Shown: positions 6,306 to 64,000 of the stretch, in pieces
Numbering within the stretch: position 1 is the stretch's first letter
Layout of the letters: each line of letters starts with the position of its first letter
Position numbers and translations under genes: made by a program
Assembly (NCBI GenBank): GCA_044892525.1
Contig: CM097885.1
Location: 10,418,001 to 10,482,000 of the forward strand
From: Schmidtea polychroa
Lineage: Eukaryota
Direction: 5' to 3'
DNA: 64,000 nucleotides
Notes under the pieces: generated by a model
What the model was told of the DNA's origin: nothing
The model's database searches: none
The model's input: only the letters and a program-made list of their open reading frames with translations

Positions 6306-8119
6306 CAAGGGTAGGCACGCATGGGTTCAATAAGAGCCATTTTCCGAAAATTTATTTTTTACAGAGCCACCATAGTAAAGTACATATTTTTTTTTATTTC
6401 ATTAATTTGATTAAAGAGACTTAAACGCTATTAAAAAAAAACAAAATAATTATTTCAAACATTAAGTAACAAACATAAAAATCCATTAATAAAAAGTAAT
6501 AAAATTTCTTGAATTAACGAAGACTTTTGGTCAAATCTTTGAAATTTGGTGTATACTTTGTTAAAGCTGTTCGCAGCAATTCTGTAAGATGCTGATTGGT
6601 CAACTGTGAACGATATTTCGACTTTACGAACTTCATTGTGGAGTACAAAGATTCACAACAATATGTTGTACCAAAAATTGAAATTAGACGGCAAGCAGCT
6701 TGTTTTAAGTGTGGATATTTTGCCTCTGGTACGAGTTTCCAAAATTCAACTATAGAAGTAGATTTATGGTGCATTTGCAAAGCCTGGTCCTCTTTCATAT
6801 CTAATAACTCCAATTCCCCAACCGCTTTTTTAACAAGTATTACTTCAGAAATTGGAAATCCATCTTCAATAATATCACAAATAAATGGGTTCACAAAAAA
6901 TGCAAATGTAGATTTATAACTTTTCAAATCTTCAAACCTACATTTGAAATCCGCTTGCAATTCTTCCAATTTTTCACTGTATTCGTTTACTTTTTCTTCT
7001 GTAATATCAATTATATTAGCTTTTATTCGTGGAAAATGATTAAATATTTTCGACCTAAGATCGTTCACAAAAAGCCGAAGTTTAGCTTCAAAACTAAATA
7101 ACGTTTGTGACAAATCAATAATTATCTTTTCTTTTCCTTGTAAAGCCAAATTTAATGTTTGCAAATGTTCCATAATGTCTGTAAGGAACATTAAGTCAGA
7201 AAGCCAAGTTTCATCAATTTATGTAGTTTTGAGTTGTCCGGATCCAAAACTTTAATCACTTCTTCCAAGTTTCTCTTAATAAATTCACCTTCTCCATATG
7301 GACGTTTAGCACGAGCTATATTCCAAGCTATCAAAAAACTAGCTTCGTTGGCACTGTCATCTTCACGACTAAAAGTAGATAATAGTCCTTGTTGGGCTTG
7401 AAGCCCTGATTGCAATGACTTAAGTTTTTCTGTCCGCAAGTTTGAATTGAGTGGATATTGAATTGATAAGTGTGGATGACTTACTTCATAGTGTCGACGT
7501 AAATTGGTTACTTTGTAGTTGGAAATTGTACCTTTACAAATAAGACACAACTATTTACCATTATTGTCAATAAAAATTGTTGTACATTCTTCTTGAAAAG
7601 TTCTATTTTCTTGGCTGTATTTTCGTTTTTTGATGTTTTCTGATGTCATTATAATAATAAATTTAAATAACTATATGGCTGAAATTTAAACAAAATAATA
7701 AAAAGACATTAATTTAATTTTAATTAGTTTAAAATTTTAAAATGCTTCATAAAAAAATCTTCTTACCAAATTTTTCAAAAAACACGAATAGAAAACTATA
7801 CTAAAATATACAAACGACCGCAATCTTGTACAAACAAAATAATAACCAATCAAAATTCACTAAATTTATTTTTGATGCTTCTCTCTCGTTGTTATAACAA
7901 AGCGCCGCCTACTACAAAATAATTTTAAAAAGCAGTAAAATGTGAAAAACAATGTTTCGTTAATTTTTGACATTTATGAAAATACAATTGCAACAAAAAA
8001 TTTTTTCTCAAAACATTTAGTGAAAAATTTCAAAATAAAAAATCGAATTCGATTATCAAGAATTCAATTATCAATGAGCCGCAGTTTACTCAACGAAGAG
8101 CCGCATTTGCCCACCGTTG
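6306..8119 (-). mobile_element. Internally deleted hAT DNA transposon (Charlie/SPIN/GTF2IRD2-like)
   Basis: TIRs are CAAGGGTAGGCA / TGCCCACCGTTG, with a perfect 8-bp TSD ATATAGTC (6298-6305, 8120-8127). The transposase remnant runs 7649->6514: KRK...CLIC...NLRRHY N-terminus (one stop), catalytic core deleted near 7210, and hATC C-terminus FWK...YPHLK...FGTTYCCESLYS. Confidence 0.93.
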
Positions 8120-8558: not shown

Positions 8559-9368
8559 AAAACTTCTCGTCTCAAAATAATTTCAATCAAAACATCCCCA
8601 CGTCTAAGCCGTGCCTAATTTAATTTTTAATCTTTTGTTGGCATGACAAGTTAACGTTTCACTTATCAATTTTGAAGTTTTCTGTTCATTTAAATTTTTT
8701 TATGCTGGTATGGGCAACCCAAACACCTCTGATAATATAAACATTCGAAAGACGTTATGATCCAATAAGTACACAAACATAATATGTCCCGGCAAATAAT
8801 CTTTAAAATTTTGTTATTAAGTAAATATTCCTAAGGAAATTTACTTTAGATTATTGTTTATTCCGCAATTAGCCCGCACCTTCATATACCTCAAGGGTTT
8901 TTAAATTTTGTGTAAAACTTAACGAATATGTGTAAAAAAGGTTTGATATAAAATGCGCCCCGAACCTCCCCCACTGCAGTTAATGTACAATTCGGTATTA
9001 CCAGATTCTTATATAAACTCAATTATAATTCCTTTTATTCCTTTATTTGCCTATCAAAAGATGTATTTTGTTTTCTAAATCTCGATTATTTATTGCGTAA
9101 ACAATTATTATATGATTTGACTCGTATCTATATTATCAATTCCCATCTATTTACCCCCCCCTCTATCTCACAATGTGTTAATTTTTACCTTCGCAATTTA
9201 ATTAATTCATTTCCACAGCTCCAACAAAATCAAAAGAAATTCTTAATCAAAAAATATTTTATATTTTCTCACAAAAGAATTAGAAATAAAAAATAAAAAT
9301 CTGGAGTAATTTGCATCTGATTATATTGATAGGAAATAAAAACAAAGATATTTATCCAATGATTGACT

Positions 9369-16090: not shown

Positions 16091-17667
16091 ATGGATATTA
16101 ATGGTATGTTTCTAAAGAATATTTTTAAAATATCATTATTATCATTAATTTAATAGGAGTTAATAGAATGCCATCATGGTATTTTTCTCAAATGAAAGGC
16201 TCAATCGATGATGATTGCAATGAAGGTATTTTAGGTGAGGTATATGGATAATTTATTCAAATATTTTTAGTTGATCAGATATCTTCTATGTCTTTCGATC
16301 CAACTGGAAATTTTTTAGCTACAGGTGATCGCGGAGGTAGAGTTGTCATATTCAGACGTAATGAAACAGTAAAACACAATGTTGTTTACGATGTATATGG
16401 AACCTTTACAAGCCACGAAGCTGGATTTGATTACTTGAAATCTGTAGAAATTGAAGAAAAAATTAATAAAATCGAGTGGTTACCGAAAATAAATTCTTCT
16501 AGATGTTTATTGACAACAAATGATAAAGTTATCAAATTATGGCGGGTAAAGGAACGTCCTGCAAATTGTCAGACGTCAAATAACAGTTCCAAATCCTTAA
16601 AACACGCCGATACACCATTTGTTTTGGGAACAAGAGTCGAAAGTAGTTGCCGTAAAACATTTGCCAATGCTCATACATTTAACATAAATTCACTTTCAAT
16701 AAATAGCGATCAGGAAACTTTTCTTTCATCCGATGAATTGAGAATCAATATATGGAATTTACAATACACAGATCAATCTTTTAATATTGTGGATTTAAAA
16801 CCCCCAAATATGGAGAATCTCACGGAAGTTATTACAGCGGCTAAATTTCACCCGACAAATTGTTCGATGTTCGTTTATAGTCTTAGTAGAGGCGTTGTTC
16901 GTCTGTGTGACATGCGACAACGAGCTCTATGTGATCAGTATTCATTTCAGTTTGTCGATAATGATGAGTCAGTAAATAAGAGCTTTTTCTCAGAAATTAT
17001 CAGCAGTATATCGGATATCAGTTTCAGTCATTCCGGCCAGATGCTAATGGCCCGGGACTACCTCAATTTAAAAATCTGGGATTTACGACAAAATTCCCAA
17101 CCGTTGGAAACTTTTCCCGTTCATGATCATTTCCGAGCGAAATTATGTGGATTATATGAAAACGATTGCATATTCGATAAATTCGAGTGTTCTTGGTCAT
17201 CCGACGATCGATATATTCTAACTGGATCTTATAATAACTTCTTCAGGGTTTTCGATGTCTCCCAGAGAACAAGTGTAACTCTCCAAGTATCTAGAGATAT
17301 GATTGATGGAAGTGTTGCTCTGGCGAATAAATTCGTTTCTACTCGATCTTTGTCGTCGAATTCTCGCGGTCGTGAAAATGAAGTCGGTTTGGAAAGTTTA
17401 GATTTAAGCAAAAAACTTCTCCATTTAAATTGGCATCCAACGGAAAATGTTCTCGCAATTGCCGCTACTAATAATTTGTATATTCTACAAAATCACAATT
17501 ACGTCATCGATTCTGGTTCCGATGTCGCGATGAATCCGTTGGAATCAGATCCACCCGATTTGCATCTGAATAATGGATATTCGCACAATGATCAACAACA
17601 ACAACAGTTCAATGACAACAATAACAGCAACAACAGTCCGATTAGGATGGAAATCGATGATGTTTAA
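16091..17667 (+). CDS. PPP2R2: Protein phosphatase 2A 55-kDa regulatory subunit B (B55/twins), ~492 aa
   Basis: Exons 16091-16103, 16157-16225 and 16271-17667 join in frame (1479 nt). Motifs: WYFSQMKG, LATGDRGGRVVIF, FDYLKSVEIEEKINKI, NIVDLKP.NME.LTEVIT, SFFSEIISSISD, LYENDCIFDKF, WHPTEN. Confidence 0.96.
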
Positions 17668-57640: not shown

Positions 57641-58067
57641 GGTTTCCAATGAGACGTTTAAGGCACTATTTTTAGATCACTCTTTGATCAAGGTATAATT
57701 ATTAAAAGATCAAATTAACAAATGACCTTACATTTTCTAGACAGAGCTGTTTTAATAATTTTCTAATATAAATATGGCATGAAAAAATAATTAAAATTAA
57801 ACACAGCTATATTTTATAATTATCCAAAAACATTTACACTTAGTTTTGACATTTTTCAAAATTTTTATAAATCACTGGGCGCATCCAGCTTCATTTCCCC
57901 ATAACTTTTTAATCATTATTAGAATTATTCTATAAATTTAATAAAAGTTTTGAATATATTTGTCATTTTAATTTGAAACACTGAACAATAAATTAAAATC
58001 TTATTAAAACTGACAAGTTACTAATTACCTTTGGCACGTACTAGTGATATGAATAATAATAAAGATG

Positions 58068-58216
<149 letters not shown>

Positions 58217-58256
58217 ATAAACAGCACAGGCTTTGTGATACCCAGTGCAAATCTCA

Positions 58257-58297
58257 ATAGTAGACTAGTTTCGAGCTTTTTGCTCTCATCAGTACTT
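58257..58297 (-). ncRNA. Minimal type-I hammerhead ribozyme (minus copy)
   Basis: The minus strand reads AAGTA CTGATGA GAGC AAAAA GCTC GAAAC TA GTC TACTAT. Confidence 0.85.
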
Positions 58298-58352
58298 GAA
58301 GATTTCTCTTCGTGCAGGTAAGTATACAATATTGCTGATTCAGCTTTATTGC

Positions 58353-60239: not shown

Positions 60240-60625
60240 ATTTCATAATTGATTAATATTTTTATTTGTTCTTTTTCATTCAAATAGTAGTATTTCAGGA
60301 ACATTAATGCTTTAAGTGATGTACAAGAAAGGCGAGATCTAATTTTGGTGCGGAAATTTACCAAAACTGAAAAGGTTCTCTCTGCTTCTGTTAAAGTCTG
60401 GAGTTTTTAATACAAATTATATAGCAATTCAAGATTTTGTGTTAGTTTTCTAAAAGATGTTAAATTCTTGCTTTAAAGTACAACTATTATTTGATATTCC
60501 TACTTGTTTAATGTTGGATGCATTAGACATGTATAAATTTAGTCCTTCAATTGATTCCAATTCTGATTCAACTAGAGTTGAGGATTCTTCAAGCATAATT
60601 TCTTCCTCCTCTTCCGATTCTATAT
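60240..60625 (-). mobile_element. Decayed hAT transposase C-terminus (insertion target of the Polinton)
   Basis: The minus strand reads LKQEFNIF*...TEAERTFSV..NFRTKIRSRLS..SLKALMFLKYYY. The reading is cut at the AGTAAGTAG terminus. Confidence 0.75.
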
Positions 60626-60719
60626 AGTAAGTAGGTAGATAGTAGCCTACGGCAGCAATGACCCCCCCGGGGGGGGGGTTCTGCTGCCGTAATTTTTTTG
60701 CTGCAACTTTTGATTACGC

Positions 60720-61990
60720 AATTTTTCACACTATAGTGAGGGGGTCTCGATGGTCCTGGGATTTTCAATACAAAAAAATTTTTTCTATACAAAAACGATG
60801 GTCCTGGGATTTTCAATACAAAAAAAATTTTTCTATACAAAAATCCGACTACCACTAAAAAAGCATGGAATTTTCAGACTATAGTGAGGGGGTCTCGATG
60901 GTCCTGGGATTTTCAATACAAAAAAAAAATTTTTCTATACAAAAACAATGGTCCTGGGATTTTCAATACAAATAAAATTTTTTCAATACAAAAAGGCGGT
61001 CTCACTAAAAAAGCATGGAATTTTCAGAATATAGTGAGGGGGTCTCGATGGTCCTGGGATTTTCAATACAAAAATTTTTTTTCTATACAAAAATCCTACT
61101 ATCAATAAAAAAGCCAAGGATTTATCACGCTATAGTGAGGTGAGTCTCCTTGGTCCTGAGAAATAGGTGTTCTACACTAAAAAACGTGGTAATTTAAGGT
61201 CTCGGGATATTTTCAATACAAAAAGCTGGTCTACACTAAAAAGCATGGTAATTTAAGGTCTCAGGATATTTTCAATACAAAAAGCTGGTCTACACTAAAA
61301 AAGCCAAGGATTTTTCAGACTATAGTGAGGTGAGTCTCCTTGGTCCTGAGAAAAAGGTGGTCTACACTAAAAAACGTGGTAAATTATTCAATTAAAGTAA
61401 ATAATGGTCCAAATTTTTAAATTAAAGTAAATAATGGTCCTAAAAATTAAATTACAGTAAATTATGGCTCAAATTTTTCAATTAAAGTAAATTAAGGTCC
61501 TAAAAATTAAATTAAAGTAAATTAAGGTCCTAAAAATTAAATTACAGTAAATAATGGTTCTAAAAAATTAAATTAAAGTAAATTATGGTCCAAATTTTTC
61601 AATTAAAGTAAATAATGGTTCTAAAAATTAAAATTAAAGTAAATTATGGTCTAAATTTAAAATTAAGTAATCAATGGTAAAAAATTTTAAATAAGTAATA
61701 ATTTTTAAATAAGTAAATTAAAGTAATAATTTTTAAATAAGTAAATTAAAGTAATGTAATAAGTAAATTAAAGTAAGATTTTAAAATTTATTAACAAAAA
61801 GTTGAAGGTGTTTGAGAATTGAAATTTTTTAATGGAAATTTTTATGAAATATTTTTTTAAGTAATTTTTAATGGAAATTTTTATGAAATATTTTTTTAAG
61901 TAATTTTTAATGGAAATTTTTATGAAATATTTTTCAATGATAATTTTAGATGGAAATTTTTAAGATAACTTTTAATGAAAATTTTTATGA
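60720..61990. repeat. Subterminal tandem arrays of the Polinton
   Basis: ~150-bp unit TATAGTGAGGGGGTCTCGATGGTCCTGGGATTTTCAATAC (60732, 60880, 61030; variants at 61131 and 61321). ~30-bp AATTAAAGTAAAT.ATGGTCC.AAA unit (61390-61680). 38-bp TTTTTAATGGAAATTTTTATGAAATA unit (61826-61990). Confidence 0.92.
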
Positions 61991-62102
61991 AATAATAATA
62001 AAAATAATAATAATAATAATAAAAATAATATATCAACCAAATACATAAAAATGAACTAGACACATAAAACACAAACAATTAACAAATGTAAAGATATAAA
62101 AT

Positions 62103-62450
62103 TTATTCATCCAATATTTGCTTGTAATAAGCTCTTCTTAATTCTGCTAGTAAAATATGAACAACTTCTTTCATCTTATATTCTTGGCAGCATCTACATC
62201 TAAACGGACATGGTAATTTCATCGGATCCATACATACTTCACAATCGTCTATGCATTTAAATCTTGATTCTTGTACAGATTCGAAATGTCTTCGTATAAG
62301 TTCTTCTATATTGATCCCCGTTAATTGCTTGATTCTATAAGCTAATAATTCCGGAGCACAATATGAAAGTCTGTTCTTTATATTCGGGAACAATTCTTCC
62401 ATCTTCGTTAATATAGTCTGGAATATGTAAGCTTGCTTATCGTCATCCAT
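62103..62450 (-). CDS. Polinton accessory protein, 115 aa, Cys-rich (CxxxCxxC...CxxxCxCC)
   Basis: Intact ATG ORF with AAAATG context, 63 bp downstream of the TBP-like gene on the same strand. Confidence 0.7.
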   Translation of the reverse strand: MDDDKQAYIFQTILTKMEELFPNIKNRLSYCAPELLAYRIKQLTGINIEELIRRHFESVQESRFKCIDDCEVCMDPMKLPCPFRCRCCQEYKMKEVVHILLAELRRAYYKQILDE

Positions 62451-62513: not shown

Positions 62514-62990
62514 TTAACTTAATAAATATTCCAATATTTCTTCATTTGTTGTGATATTTATAGTTAATGATTTAATGAATTTCTGAATTTCTTGAATTTG
62601 ATTAAAATAATCAAATGTTTTAATCCCTAATATAACAACTTTCCCACTTGAAAAAACATTTACACATAGGGGGTTATACTTGAGAATACGTAAAGCTGGA
62701 AATATTTCAGGCTCATAGTAACTATCGGTTTTCCTTGACAATGCATTTAAATCAATGCATGTACCCATATCTAACGTTAATGTAATTGATTGGATTTGTA
62801 AATCTTGAATCTGATATTTGAGATCGCCTTCCTGTAATGGTTTCTTACATCCCATTATCCTACATTTCCCGCTCTTGAAGAATAAAATTGGATATTTTCC
62901 ACTTCTGTCCACGACATGTTGAGGTTTTCCTGATGGGAACTTCATTCCATTTACTACACATCTTCCTCTATAATTAATGTTGCTGATCAT
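62514..62990 (-). CDS. TATA-binding-protein-like protein, 158 aa, element-encoded
   Basis: ATG 62990. Two TBP repeats: ISNI...ILFFKSGKCRIMG and DLQIQSI...IDLNALS...YYEPEIFPAL...VNVFSSGKVVILG. Compare canonical LQNIV...LIFSSGKMVCTG and FKIQNMV...YEPELFPGL...LIFVSGKVVLTG. Confidence 0.88.
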   Translation of the reverse strand: MISNINYRGRCVVNGMKFPSGKPQHVVDRSGKYPILFFKSGKCRIMGCKKPLQEGDLKYQIQDLQIQSITLTLDMGTCIDLNALSRKTDSYYEPEIFPALRILKYNPLCVNVFSSGKVVILGIKTFDYFNQIQEIQKFIKSLTINITTNEEILEYLLS

Positions 62991-63040
62991 TCTAATTATT
63001 GTAATTATAAACAAATTAAATAAAATAATTTAATTAAAAA

Positions 63041-63664
63041 ATGGAATTAAGAAATGACGCAGTATATCAAATAGTAGGACCTAGTGGAAGCGGGAAAACT
63101 TTATTTGTATGTAATTTATTACAATCAAACATGTTTAAATCTAAATTTAATAAAATATATTGGCATCGAGGTGCAGATGAAGAACATGGATTGACTCAAA
63201 ACAGTTTCTGTAAATTAAAAATGACAATAATTAAAGGATTTGATAAAAATTGGTCATCTAGATTACGTCAAGGTGATGTTATTATTATCGATGATCTGTA
63301 CCAGGAAGCAAATAAAGAAAAAGATTTTAATAATTTATTTACAAAAATCAGTAGACATTGCGGAGTTACAGTTATTTTCATTACACAAAATCTTTTTCAT
63401 CAAGGTGGAAGTCATAGAACACGTAATTTAAATGTCCAATATTTAATTATTTTCAAAAATCCTAGAGATCAAACAATAATAGATTTTCTTGCGAGACAAG
63501 CTTATCCAAATAATAGAAAATTTTTGATTGATTCATTCCAAGATGCAACAAAAATTCCTCATGGATATTTATTTTTTGATTTTACACAACAATGTCCAGA
63601 TGATATGCGTATTAGAACTGATATTTTTAATATAAACGGTGTTACGATTTATAAACAAAACTAA
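63041..63664 (+). CDS. Genome-packaging ATPase (A32/FtsK-HerA family) of Polinton/adintovirus type
   Basis: Walker A GPSGSGKT, Walker B IIIDD, SRH arginine finger, ITQNLF, FKNPRD, PHGYLFFD and RIRT; intact 207 aa. Confidence 0.93.
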   Translation: MELRNDAVYQIVGPSGSGKTLFVCNLLQSNMFKSKFNKIYWHRGADEEHGLTQNSFCKLKMTIIKGFDKNWSSRLRQGDVIIIDDLYQEANKEKDFNNLFTKISRHCGVTVIFITQNLFHQGGSHRTRNLNVQYLIIFKNPRDQTIIDFLARQAYPNNRKFLIDSFQDATKIPHGYLFFDFTQQCPDDMRIRTDIFNINGVTIYKQN

Positions 63665-63683: not shown

Positions 63684-63836
63684 ATGTCATTTAAAAAAGT
63701 AGTTGTTAAAAATCTTCCAAGTGTTTCGAAGAAAATTACCAAGAAAACAAAACGTACAAAGAAAACAAAAAGTGGATCAAAAAGTACAAAAAGTACAAAA
63801 ACTAAGAAAAAAATCAAGAAGTGGATCAAATTATAA
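63684..63836 (+). CDS. Very basic 50-aa K/T/S-rich protein (candidate virion core / DNA-condensing protein)
   Basis: MSFKKVVVKNLPSVSKKITKKTKRTKKTKSGSKSTKSTKTKKKIKKWIKL*. It fills the gap between the ATPase and the next ORF and is below the ORF-track cutoff. Confidence 0.6.
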   Translation: MSFKKVVVKNLPSVSKKITKKTKRTKKTKSGSKSTKSTKTKKKIKKWIKL

Positions 63837-63858
63837 ACAATCCGTCGCGTAAATAATA

Positions 63859-64000
63859 ATGAAATTTGAACGGAGCTTACCATATTTTAATGCTTTAATA
63901 AAGGCACCAAATTCGAAACGAATATCAATTTTACAGTCTTTTCCATCATTTGTTATTGATGATTTACTTGAAGTTATTATAAATGTTGTCCGCGGTAATG
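63859..64000 (+). CDS. Small Polinton/adintovirus protein typically found after the ATPase (partial, runs off window)
   Basis: MKFERSLPYFNALIKAPNSKRISILQSFPSFVIDDLLEVIINVVRGN...; the E...N...GN pattern recalls the small conserved Polinton gene next to the ATPase. Confidence 0.65.
   Translation, partial: MKFERSLPYFNALIKAPNSKRISILQSFPSFVIDDLLEVIINVVRGN

Follow-up and report, generated by a model that had tools for sequence, protein, structure and literature searches.

At the right-hand end of the 64-kb window analysed here, a continuous stretch of the Schmidtea polychroa genome ending at position 64000, lies the left part of a virus-like element, of which the genome holds very many copies; its context was taken from the next 30 kb beyond the window end, where positions are given on L021 and L022. 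The element is 16,575 bp long, with terminal inverted repeats (TIRs) of ~1.4 kb and a target-site duplication of 6 bp. The left copy of the duplication, ATAGTA, occupies 60624..60629, and the right copy, also ATAGTA, lies directly past the element end at L022 5205-5210 (13,205-13,210 bases beyond the window). The left TIR (60630..61994) starts with AGTAGG, is rich in tandem sub-repeats and includes a stretch common to other copies of the element, while the right TIR ends at L022 5204. The right arm aligned with positions 60624-61738 over 1135 bp (96.4% identity) and with positions 61386-61994 over 625 bp (93.3%). Long TIRs of 93-96% identity with ATAGTA on both flanks delimit the element. The small ORFs listed within the left TIR were dismissed as repeat artefacts.

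The part of the element inside the window is organised around a divergent gene pair. The gene for a small TATA-binding protein (TBP), hereafter mini-TBP (62514..62990, minus strand, 158 aa; repeat 1 consisting of beta strands, repeat 2 complete), lies, as the earlier note had described, head to head with that for an A32/FtsK-HerA-type packaging ATPase (63041..63664, plus strand, 207 aa), with 50 bp between the divergent ATGs. The ATPase matched Pox_A32 (7.9e-7, 29.2 bits; cut-off 22.8), and was 83-84% identical in sister families, 60-75% identical in 16 of the 17 metagenome loci with an ATPase match and 37% identical in the locus L075. Downstream of the TBP gene and on the same strand is ORF115 (62103..62450, minus strand), a Cys-rich ORF of 115 aa for which no Pfam or PHROG family and no Atlas match was found; counterparts with 32-33% identity occupy the same position in L100, L102 and L103, which are copies from the sister families, and no match was found in copy L101. 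The ATPase gene is followed by a small basic, Lys-rich ORF of 50 aa (63684..63836, plus strand), which from its composition alone is a candidate DNA-condensing core protein, and by the gene for an adenovirus protein-X/mu-like core protein of 108 aa (63859..64000, plus strand, running on to L021 2185), which matched Adeno_PX at 28 bits (cut-off 25).

The earlier note had taken the locus for part of a Polinton-like element with core genes further downstream, and an rve integrase, adenain, a capsid protein and the right TIR were indeed found there. The integrase gene (L021 2255-3403), interrupted by one short intron, matched rve (1.2e-8, 35.5 bits; cut-off 32.6), and its second exon gave weak rve_3 and Chromo matches. 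Also beyond the window are the paralogues p341 and p338, which by position alone are candidate minor (penton) capsid proteins, and p132. For the double-jelly-roll major capsid protein (L021 5831-7054), an AF2 model of p407 built from 8 sequences reached a pLDDT of 70, and its top Foldseek matches were the major capsid proteins of PBCV-1, mavirus and Sputnik (E 4e-13 to 1e-11). Adenain, with its ATG at L021 7089 and main exon at 7129-7467, matched Peptidase_C5 (25.3 bits, cut-off 21.3, E 1.4e-5). The candidate pPolB (L021 9344 to L022 3468) gave no Pfam polymerase match and no PDB sequence match, a sub-threshold Endonuclease_7 match being its only one in Pfam; its nearest Atlas clusters are annotated 'DNA-directed DNA polymerase' (PF03175 in 18-27% of members, score 0.98), and the long ORF of syntenic metagenome loci shares 46-52% identity with it. 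No RNA polymerase gene was found in the 16.6-kb element. The gene set and the termini supported its assignment as a Polinton/Maverick, with probable adintovirus-like traits such as the Adeno_PX match and the location in an animal-sized genome. The stretch is covered by contigs from four public runs, of type not given, which displayed neither transcription starts nor strand, and no splice junctions across the integrase intron. In run X2, A runs without a genomic template were seen on a few contig ends at L021 4677-4784, in part beside genomic A runs, and these ends are not usable as expression evidence.

The ORF listing under translation table 11 gave a TTG-start version of the mini-TBP ORF (62514..63014, minus strand, 166 aa), and the first ATG, at 62990, gives 158 aa; because the resulting N-terminus MISNINY lines up with the N-termini of 66 homologues, 158 aa was taken as the right length, which agrees with the intronless 158-aa ORF originally described. 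The protein matched the Pfam family TBP (PF00352) in two stretches (E 4.7e-16, 58.8 bits; cut-off 22.9), and all 35 of the 35 matches in a PDB sequence search were TBPs (best 2.1e-13), the identity to solved TBPs being ~20-26%. Its AF2 model (pLDDT 94.1) displayed the saddle fold on a curved antiparallel sheet; in a Foldseek search against PDB with this model, ranks 1-44 were TBP chains (TMq 0.59-0.68, E 8e-9 to 1e-5), and the next match had an E of 0.09. The TBP fold and the family assignment of the mini-TBP, as proposed in the earlier note, are secure on these grounds.

The description of the protein as a two-repeat TBP held for repeat 2, which is complete, and failed for repeat 1, which in the AF2 model has four strands (residues 2-10, 25-28, 35-38 and 42-48) and no helix, the helices of the protein (81-87 and 129-157) being confined to repeat 2. 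The alignment with host TBPs likewise had gaps at the positions of the repeat 1 helices H1 and H2. The canonical TBP/TRF architecture consists of two complete alpha/beta repeats, each with H1 and H2, and since repeat 1 lacks both, the mini-TBP is a divergent short form and not a canonical TBP/TRF orthologue. With cellular TBPs and TRFs (PF00352; host genes L080-L086) it shares the saddle fold, the complete repeat 2, the stirrup motif Y-E-P-E-x-F-P and the strand G-K-V-V, but it differs from them in its length of 158 aa, in having no N-terminal tail and in the loss of both repeat 1 helices. As modelled, it is a one-and-a-half-repeat TBP, the smallest TBP-fold form among those compared.

Alignment of the homologues revealed that F38, F97, F113 and E95 are invariant in the family, that F18 is the majority residue at its position and that E93 and P94 are kept in at least 90% of members. 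The phenylalanines align with those of host TBP, and the kept Phe and E-P-E residues presumably correspond to the DNA-bending and TFIIB-contacting positions of canonical TBP; the residues expected for DNA bending would on this alignment be conserved. Two further invariant residues, R44 and M46, are located on the last strand of repeat 1, at positions that are V and T in host TBP, the DNA-facing strand reading C-R-I-M in the mini-TBP versus M-V-C-T in the host protein. A complex prediction of the mini-TBP with a TFIIB core (residues 105-308 of P0121, a protein of a species closely related to the host), run without controls, gave a score of 0.02 and no verdict, which counts neither for nor against an interaction.

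The gene proved to be widespread. We found 123 metagenome proteins 35-68% identical to the mini-TBP and 57 clusters in its family at E<=1e-30, and Polinton genes adjoin the homologue in 23 of 56 metagenome loci, which are not independent, several being near-copies of one another. A layout with the TBP gene is common to at least three Polinton families in the S. polychroa genome; further copies linking TBP and ATPase, which the earlier note had proposed to look for, were found in sister families and in metagenome loci. The place of the TBP gene differs among the lineages, some having it ahead of the ATPase gene, others in divergent orientation to the ATPase gene or behind the protease gene. Pairwise identities of the TBP and of the ATPase rise together (Spearman 0.65; 91 pairs, not independent). 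In the Viral_contigs collection, relatives of neither the mini-TBP nor the ATPase of the element were found. A branch with 100/100 support split the mini-TBP family from four host TBP-family sequences, and this tree, together with the identity levels, ruled out a recent capture from the host; the 'captured TBP' of the earlier note is in that sense replaced by an old, clade-wide gene.

Selection on the gene was assessed from dN/dS over 64 pairs restricted to dS 0.05-1.5. The median was 0.24, and 63 of the 64 pairs were below 0.5, indicating purifying selection. The frame was free of stops in 149 of 150 scored genome copies, a biased sample whose rows were ranked by protein score, and the variant sites among 20 genome loci comprised 7 synonymous and 0 non-synonymous ones, a count that is not a fair selection test because these loci were likewise ranked by protein score. 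Judged from the sequences compared, the mini-TBP is a long-standing, clade-wide Polinton gene under purifying selection.

In 15 of 15 relatives, the ATPase gene is preceded, at a distance of ~35 nt, by a TATA-like box TATAAACA(A), always on the sense strand. The element itself carries the box TATAAACAA on the plus strand at 63006..63014 (within the 50-bp divergent intergenic region), 63650..63658 and 63832..63840, which is 35, 34 and 27 nt ahead of the ATPase ATG, the small basic ORF and the protein-X-like gene, respectively; before the capsid, protease and integrase genes, a box of this type lies 26-106 nt upstream. L021 contains 8 copies of TATAAACAA, all on the plus strand, versus 0.78 expected, and 0 of 200 shuffles reached 8. 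There was one match in the rest of the 64-kb window, the flanking host DNA not being enriched, and no TATAAAC box was found within the TIRs.

For the relatives, we counted sense ATAAAC at up to 120 nt upstream of a gene in 50 windows from the metagenome loci. It was present before the ATPase gene in 15/15 windows, at positions -31 to -47 (14 of the 15 at -31 to -36), as well as before the genes for the protein-X-like protein (9/9), the major capsid protein (7/7), p132 (6/6), p341 (5/6), the protease (3/6) and the integrase (1/1). Antisense ATAAAC occurred in 0 of the 50 morphogenesis-gene windows, and the background was 6.6% of random windows. The 7-mer ATAAACA was found in 31 of the 50 windows versus 1.0 expected. 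Over 53 distinct sites the box was flanked by T in 46 and by A in 47, yielding the consensus T-ATAAAC-A-(A/T) of 8-9 bp; the two bases preceding T-ATAAAC are not conserved, and C/G-ATAAACA variants occur. Where the box falls inside coding sequence, the codons for Ser-Ile-Asn are spelled TATAAAC every time (7 of 7); codon usage predicts 0.09 for the Ile-Asn pair ATA-AAC. The sites upstream of p341 fall in Lys-Gln codons of the integrase chromodomain, and coding constraint alone may keep some of the box sites. In a second Polinton family of the same genome, without a TBP among its ORFs of at least 100 aa, none of the 18 upstream windows contained the box, which constitutes a single-family negative control. 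A reading of the box as a poly(A) signal was rejected, given divergent layouts with no co-directional gene upstream of the ATPase box and several boxes that fall within a gene, ~100 nt short of its stop codon.

The TBP genes themselves lack this association, ATAAAC preceding them in 4/48 cases in sense and 4/48 in antisense orientation, i.e. at the background rate. A canonical TATAWAWR box was present before 19 of 47 TBP genes, several of which also have a CCAAT box. In the sister families, a (TA)n stretch lies around positions -35 to -45 relative to the TBP gene. In the family of the present element, no clear promoter of its own was found for the TBP gene in the 50-bp spacer, the sole TATA-like element there being the ATPase box in reverse, 20-27 nt from the TBP ATG.

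Polintons/Mavericks are regarded as wholly dependent on host transcription. The conserved TATAAACA box before the morphogenesis genes indirectly favours a redirection of that transcription to viral promoters, and we lean, if only slightly, towards the mini-TBP being a functional virus-encoded late-gene TBP that acts on this box, by analogy with the herpesvirus vTBP/TATT system. The mini-TBP gene would be transcribed by the host machinery from an ordinary promoter, and the saddle of its product would then bind the T-ATAAAC-A-(A/T) box, which in its shortest-spaced instances (ATPase and protein-X-like genes) lies ~35 nt upstream of the start codon. The retained C-terminal stirrup Y-E-P-E-I-F-P would recruit host TFIIB and Pol II, and through this recruitment the morphogenesis genes are proposed to come on as a block, later than the mini-TBP gene. 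In cellular TBP the repeat 1 helices bear regulator and partner surfaces; since both are lost, the mini-TBP probably escapes host TBP regulators and would not be built into TFIID. The fuller scheme, namely a two-tier programme in which a host-type promoter yields a mini-TBP retuned via R44/M46 to TATAAACA and thereby the whole morphogenesis block, as an independent reinvention of the herpesvirus late switch, we regard as having an even chance of being correct.

The same box might be explained without the mini-TBP. Because its ATAAACA core also fits the forkhead site consensus RYAAAYA, a host factor could read it and thereby drive the morphogenesis genes, either a FOX protein or, with the box as a weak TATA variant, the host's own TBP, the mini-TBP then acting otherwise; it is consistent with this that ATAAACA is the most conserved 7-mer and that the bases before T-ATAAAC vary, C/G variants included. 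The strict orientation and the tight spacing before the ATPase gene, however, are more what one would expect of a core-promoter element than of an enhancer-type site, and the box is neither present in the TBP-less family of the same host nor enriched in the flanking host DNA, so that a host reader appears unlikely, though worth keeping in mind. The mini-TBP could also be a decoy or dominant-negative protein that, instead of activating viral genes, damps host or antiviral transcription by occupying host TATA boxes or titrating TFIIB. A protein stripped of the repeat 1 helices and retaining the TFIIB-type stirrup motif would suit such a role, but the role leaves unexplained why an oriented box should be conserved ahead of genes of the element itself, and the invariant R44 and M46 on the DNA face of repeat 1 suggest an altered rather than a lost specificity; we hold it to be improbable.

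TBP-fold domains have other DNA-binding roles in other proteins, and the location of the mini-TBP gene beside those for the packaging ATPase and core proteins would accord with an architectural protein that bends DNA for replication, integration or packaging. Such a function seems more improbable still, as the TIRs are devoid of the TATAAAC box and the TBP gene changes its place between lineages, therefore not behaving as part of a packaging module. That the gene is a decaying passenger without function, for which the truncated first repeat is the sole point, is contradicted by the selection data, with the low dN/dS across lineages, the 57 clusters and the open frame of the scored copies, and has a minimal probability. 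The late-gene TBP remains the reading that we favour.

The closest functional parallel is offered by the herpesvirus TBP mimics EBV BcRF1, KSHV ORF24 and HCMV UL87, which are described as acting on TATT late promoters and bringing host Pol II (PMC4922670, PMC8360532, PMC7498053). The proposed logic is alike, a TBP-like protein of a nuclear DNA virus reading a TATA variant of late genes; the herpesvirus proteins are large and work within a six-protein complex, whereas here a single small protein would act on a different box, TATAAACA. Kinship was not apparent in BFVD, where BcRF1 ranked 49 (E 0.06, TMq 0.33), and the likeness is considered functional only. The nearest viral fold in BFVD was the putative TBP of Heterosigma akashiwo virus 01 (E 6.4e-8), followed by TBPs of Terrestrivirus, Aureococcus virus and mimivirids. 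These giant-virus TBPs have 186-500 aa and are 10-20% identical to the mini-TBP, and a TBP gene has been reported in 59% of mirusvirus genomes (PMC10132985). The TBPs of giant viruses and mirusviruses act alongside RNA polymerases that these viruses encode in their large genomes, whereas the mini-TBP is encoded by a 16.6-kb element. On the map of MELD viruses with an adintovirus-like PolB, the label 'TBP' appears in the legend to Fig. 5 of Starrett et al. 2021 (PMC8502044), and a further figure legend of the preprint also has it. A TBP-like gene has therefore been marked on a Polinton-related virus map before, which tempers the novelty suggested by the earlier note; the legends give the abbreviation with no text on function or promoters, and the labelled gene may belong to the mini-TBP family.

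If the late-gene reading is true, the mini-TBP and its private box would provide a concrete and easily testable switch for virion genes, composed of one protein and one 8-9-bp site, that could explain how the elements stay quiet yet make virions on demand. It would represent a natural TBP with altered box specificity and most regulator surfaces removed, bearing on TBP-DNA recognition and on orthogonal promoter design, and would extend the principle of a viral TBP reading a variant TATA box from herpesviruses to the Polinton/adenovirus-related world. A family of intronless TFIIB-like ORFs was also considered as a Polinton part and was rejected, the repeat unit shared by its copies being just ~1.47 kb.

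The TBP-family ORF at window 62514-62990 (- strand; mini-TBP) was uninterrupted and encoded 158 aa from its first ATG. An ORF call under translation table 11 gave 166 aa with a TTG start; the ATG was taken as the true start because the resulting MISNINY aligns with the N-termini of 66 homologues. The Pfam TBP profile (PF00352) matched the protein in two stretches (E 4.7e-16, 58.8 bits vs a cut-off of 22.9), and 35/35 PDB sequence matches were TBPs, the best archaeal one at 2.1e-13 and eukaryotic ones at about 1e-10. An AF2 model built from 67 sequences reached a mean pLDDT of 94.1, and in a Foldseek search of the PDB with this model the top 44 matches were all TBP chains (E 8e-9 to 1e-5, TMq 0.59-0.68), the first match after them having an E of 0.09. 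Since the neighboring ATPase ORF (window 63041-63664, + strand, 207 aa), which is divergent and 50 bp away, passed the cut-off of the Pox_A32 packaging-ATPase profile, the TBP-ATPase pair described in the earlier note from sequence alone was confirmed by profile and structure searches. Its description as a two-repeat protein held for repeat 2, which was a full TBP repeat in the AF2 model; repeat 1 consisted of strands with no helix, and in the alignment with the host-genome TBPs the gaps fell exactly at H1 and H2 of this repeat.

In the alignment of short TBPs, F38, F97, and F113 were invariant and F18 was the majority residue; we take these phenylalanines to occupy the intercalating positions of TBP. 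The stirrup E-P-E-x-F-P, the acidic counterpart of which contacts TFIIB in cellular TBP, was also retained. The strand of repeat 2 read the usual V-V-I-L, whereas the matching strand of repeat 1 read C-R-I-M vs the host M-V-C-T, with R44 and M46 of repeat 1 invariant among the short TBPs.

The window maps to C1:10418001-10482000 of the 781-Mb assembly, and examination of 30 kb past its end completed the element, which extends from window 60630 to 13,204 bases beyond the window end (16,575 bp in total). Its TIRs shared 96.4% identity over 1135 bp and 93.3% over 625 bp, its termini start with AGTAGG, and ATAGTA is duplicated at both flanks. The left part reads ORF115 (-), TBP (-), ATPase (+), a 50-aa Lys-rich ORF, and a protein-X-like gene (Adeno_PX, 28 bits vs a cut-off of 25); the integrase (rve, 35.5 vs 32.6 bits; one short intron and a weak chromodomain), two paralogous proteins of about 340 aa (p341 and p338), a 132-aa protein (p132), a 407-aa protein (p407), adenain (Peptidase_C5, 25.3 vs 21.3 bits), and lastly pPolB (>1,350 aa) follow. 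The model of the 407-aa protein was a double jelly roll (DJR) with the major capsid proteins of PBCV-1, mavirus, and Sputnik as best matches (E about 1e-12 to 1e-13). Pfam and PDB searches with pPolB returned nothing usable; its nearest Atlas clusters were DNA polymerases, with PF03175 in 18-27% of members. The element is a Polinton/Maverick with adintovirus-like traits, in good agreement with the context the earlier note had proposed, its integrase, adenain, DJR capsid, pPolB, and right TIR all being found past the window end.

ORF115 (window 62103-62450, - strand) is Cys-rich (C-x3-C-x2-C ... C-x3-C-x-C-C) and belongs to no known family; it adjoins the TBP gene in the sister-family copies L100, L102, and L103 (32-33% identity), with no match in the copy L101 and no tblastn match in 56 metagenome loci. 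An 86-aa open frame between the protease and pPolB (8775-9035, - strand, of L021, a stretch covering part of the element) had no TATAAAC box upstream. The left TIR carries tandem sub-repeats of several families (about 30, 60, and 75-150 bp; window 60720-61780) that give rise to spurious ORFs, a long (AAT)n microsatellite lies just outside the element (window 58021-58321), and a 459-aa WD40-repeat ORF, presumably a host gene, is located 43 kb from the insertion (window 16288-17667, + strand).

A search for further copies, as proposed in the earlier note, found very many of them in the host genome. The best-scoring 150 of 4213 candidates, a sample biased by that choice, all had 98-99% protein identity, and 149/150 were without a stop. 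The TBP gene was linked to the ATPase gene in 19/19 further loci examined, and at least two other Polinton families of this genome shared the ORF115-TBP<->ATPase layout (ORF115 undetected in L101), with the TBP 51-58% and the ATPase 83-84% identical to those of the element. Beyond this genome, the protein database held 123 relatives (35-68% identity, mostly 144-165 aa), and the number of clusters (50% identity) found by a profile search was 57 with E<=1e-30, rising to 783 with E<=1e-10. Polinton genes were also present on 23/56 metagenome loci encoding a relative; the other 33, most of them contigs of 1-3 kb, carried no further Polinton gene. On these 23 loci, the TBP gene preceded the ATPase gene on the same strand in 12, diverged from it in 2, and followed the protease in 8 and a p341-type gene in 1.

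The divergences of TBP and ATPase were correlated (Spearman 0.65; 91 non-independent pairs), the TBP being the less conserved in 90/91 pairs. The dN/dS analysis and the comparison with host TBPs, likewise proposed in the earlier note, gave the following results: the median dN/dS of short TBPs was 0.24 over the 64 pairs with usable dS (63/64 below 0.5; 876 more pairs being saturated or undefined), and a tree of 49 rows, identical ones removed, built only from short TBPs and host TBP-family sequences, separated 45 short TBPs from four host TBP-family rows by a 100/100 branch and grouped the three Polinton TBPs of the host genome together (98/98). The view of mini-TBP as a recently captured host gene did not survive the 123 relatives, the 23/56 Polinton-linked loci, and this split; these sequence comparisons indicate that it is instead a clade-wide Polinton gene under selection.

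In L021, TATAAACAA occurred 8 times, always on the + strand (0.78 expected; 8 reached in 0/200 shuffles), and the whole 64-kb window held only one more match, outside the element. In this copy, the box precedes the ATG of the ATPase by 35 nt, that of the basic ORF by 34 nt, and that of the protein-X-like gene by 27 nt; it precedes the capsid gene by 42 nt, the first protease exon by 34 nt, and p341, p338, and p132 by about 80-100 nt. Among divergent metagenome relatives (50 non-TBP windows from loci that are not independent), sense ATAAAC within 120 nt upstream was found for the ATPase in 15/15 (14 at -31 to -36), protein-X-like in 9/9, capsid in 7/7, p132 in 6/6, p341 in 5/6, protease in 3/6, and integrase in 1/1, against a background of 6.6% of random windows. 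The antisense motif occurred in 0/50 of these windows, and the TBP genes had 4/48 in each orientation. In an unbiased 7-mer count, ATAAACA ranked first (31/50 windows vs 1.0 expected), and 53 distinct sites gave the consensus T(46/53)-ATAAAC-A(47/53)-A/T, preceded by two unconserved bases. Where the box lies within the preceding gene, the Ser-Ile-Asn codons were TATAAAC in 7/7; the expectation from codon usage for the Ile-Asn pair ATA-AAC was 0.09. Sites upstream of p341 coincide with Lys-Gln codons of the integrase chromodomain, and coding alone may account for their conservation. In solved TBP-DNA complexes, it is the 3' half of the box that repeat 1 occupies, and this half is where TATAAACA diverges from TATAWAWR.

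A second, highly divergent Polinton family of the host genome (L104 9776 to L105 8550, G000:C2:101945776-101954550; L106/L107, C3:134882735-134895551) served as a negative control. Its pPolB is 28% identical to that of the element, and it encodes a 223-aa ATPase of its own and an rve integrase that includes a phospholipase-A2-like domain; its DJR-domain capsid gene is split in one copy. No TBP was detected among its ORFs of at least 100 aa (tblastn; Pfam on 13 ORFs, 9 from that family), and TATAAAC or ATAAACA occurred in 0/18 upstream windows of this one family (two copies, partly the same genes). Many genes of this family instead have CATTTTA in common, some 15-21 nt ahead of the ATG, and this motif may represent a distinct promoter or initiator element. 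An LTR-retrotransposon-type set (gag with a CCHC knuckle, aspartyl protease plus reverse transcriptase, and rve integrase) lies at L104 6227-9758, between a TBP-bearing and the TBP-less Polinton.

The TBP genes of relatives carried a canonical TATAWAWR box in 19/47 cases, several with a CCAAT box upstream, and TTGTTTWA in the last 60 nt in 9/47. The spacer of the host-genome sister families carries (TA)n toward the TBP gene (about -35 to -45) and GATATAAACAA toward the ATPase gene (about -37). The spacer in the element's own family is only 50 bp long; on the TBP strand it offers no TATA-like sequence other than the reversed ATPase box, whose distance to the ATG is too short for a usual start. 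TTGTTT(T/A)A is a recurrent upstream motif of TBP genes without a canonical TATA (e.g., metagenome loci L025, L027, L029, L030, L033, L034, L063, and L065-L072); on the other strand it reads T(A/T)AAACAA, near an inverted late box, and might be an autoregulation site.

Mini-TBP thus has a TBP fold, is under selection, and is linked to Polintons across the clade, and the box is oriented, fixed in position, and shared across lineages, with the TBP genes and the TBP-less Polinton going without it. We consider the finding, a clade-wide mini-TBP with a private box predicted to be its partner, to be real and of greater interest than the capture of one gene would be. In the proposed mechanism, mini-TBP would read the box and recruit TFIIB and Pol II, the loss of the repeat-1 helices would let it escape regulators, and the element genes would follow early/late timing. 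A host factor may read the box instead, as its ATAAACA core doubles as a forkhead-type site; the strict orientation and spacing of the box, however, make such a reader less likely. We ranked lower the ideas that mini-TBP acts as a decoy, that it serves as an architectural protein during replication or packaging, and that its gene is a functionless passenger.

The closest working analogy to the proposed mini-TBP/box switch would be the herpesvirus late switch, in which the viral TBP-like BcRF1, ORF24, or UL87 is reported to bind TATT boxes and recruit Pol II (PMC4922670, PMC8360532, PMC7498053). Mini-TBP and BcRF1 showed no detectable kinship (BcRF1 at rank 49, E 0.06), and the nearest viral folds were giant-virus TBPs of 186-500 aa with 10-20% identity. 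TBP is described as a common mirusvirus gene (PMC10132985). For Polintons, Mavericks, adintoviruses, and polinton-like viruses, the only relevant mention found in a non-exhaustive search of partly accessible texts was that of Starrett et al., in which 'TBP' appears as a gene label in the legend of Fig. 5 (PMC8502044) and, in the preprint, a second legend adds 'homologs of host proteins'; neither 'TATA' nor 'TBP' appeared in the main text of a 2026 preprint about the diversity of Polinton-like viruses. With the gene label already in print, the mini-TBP finding is not wholly new.

The host TBP family is itself unusually large (L080-L086), comprising a canonical TBP with two close paralogues plus three intronless TBP-like ORFs (two-repeat, 166-215 aa), with loci at C1:244962231, C1:41962680, C1:42000218, C2:182637078, C2:132285308, and C1:195751380. 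An intronless TFIIB-like ORF of 301-304 aa (L098 4571-5476, G000:C3:39085571-39086476, - strand; zinc ribbon PF08271, 1.5e-10; TFIIB cyclin repeat PF00382, 1.2e-10) was present in at least 13 copies, including those at C3 38.2-39.1 Mb and C1 23.8-24.2 Mb. The unit common to a pair of copies spans only about 1.47 kb (94%); the ORF was therefore rejected as a Polinton part and seems to be an amplified paralogue of the retrogene type. The intron-containing canonical TFIIB gene maps to C3:131.48 Mb.
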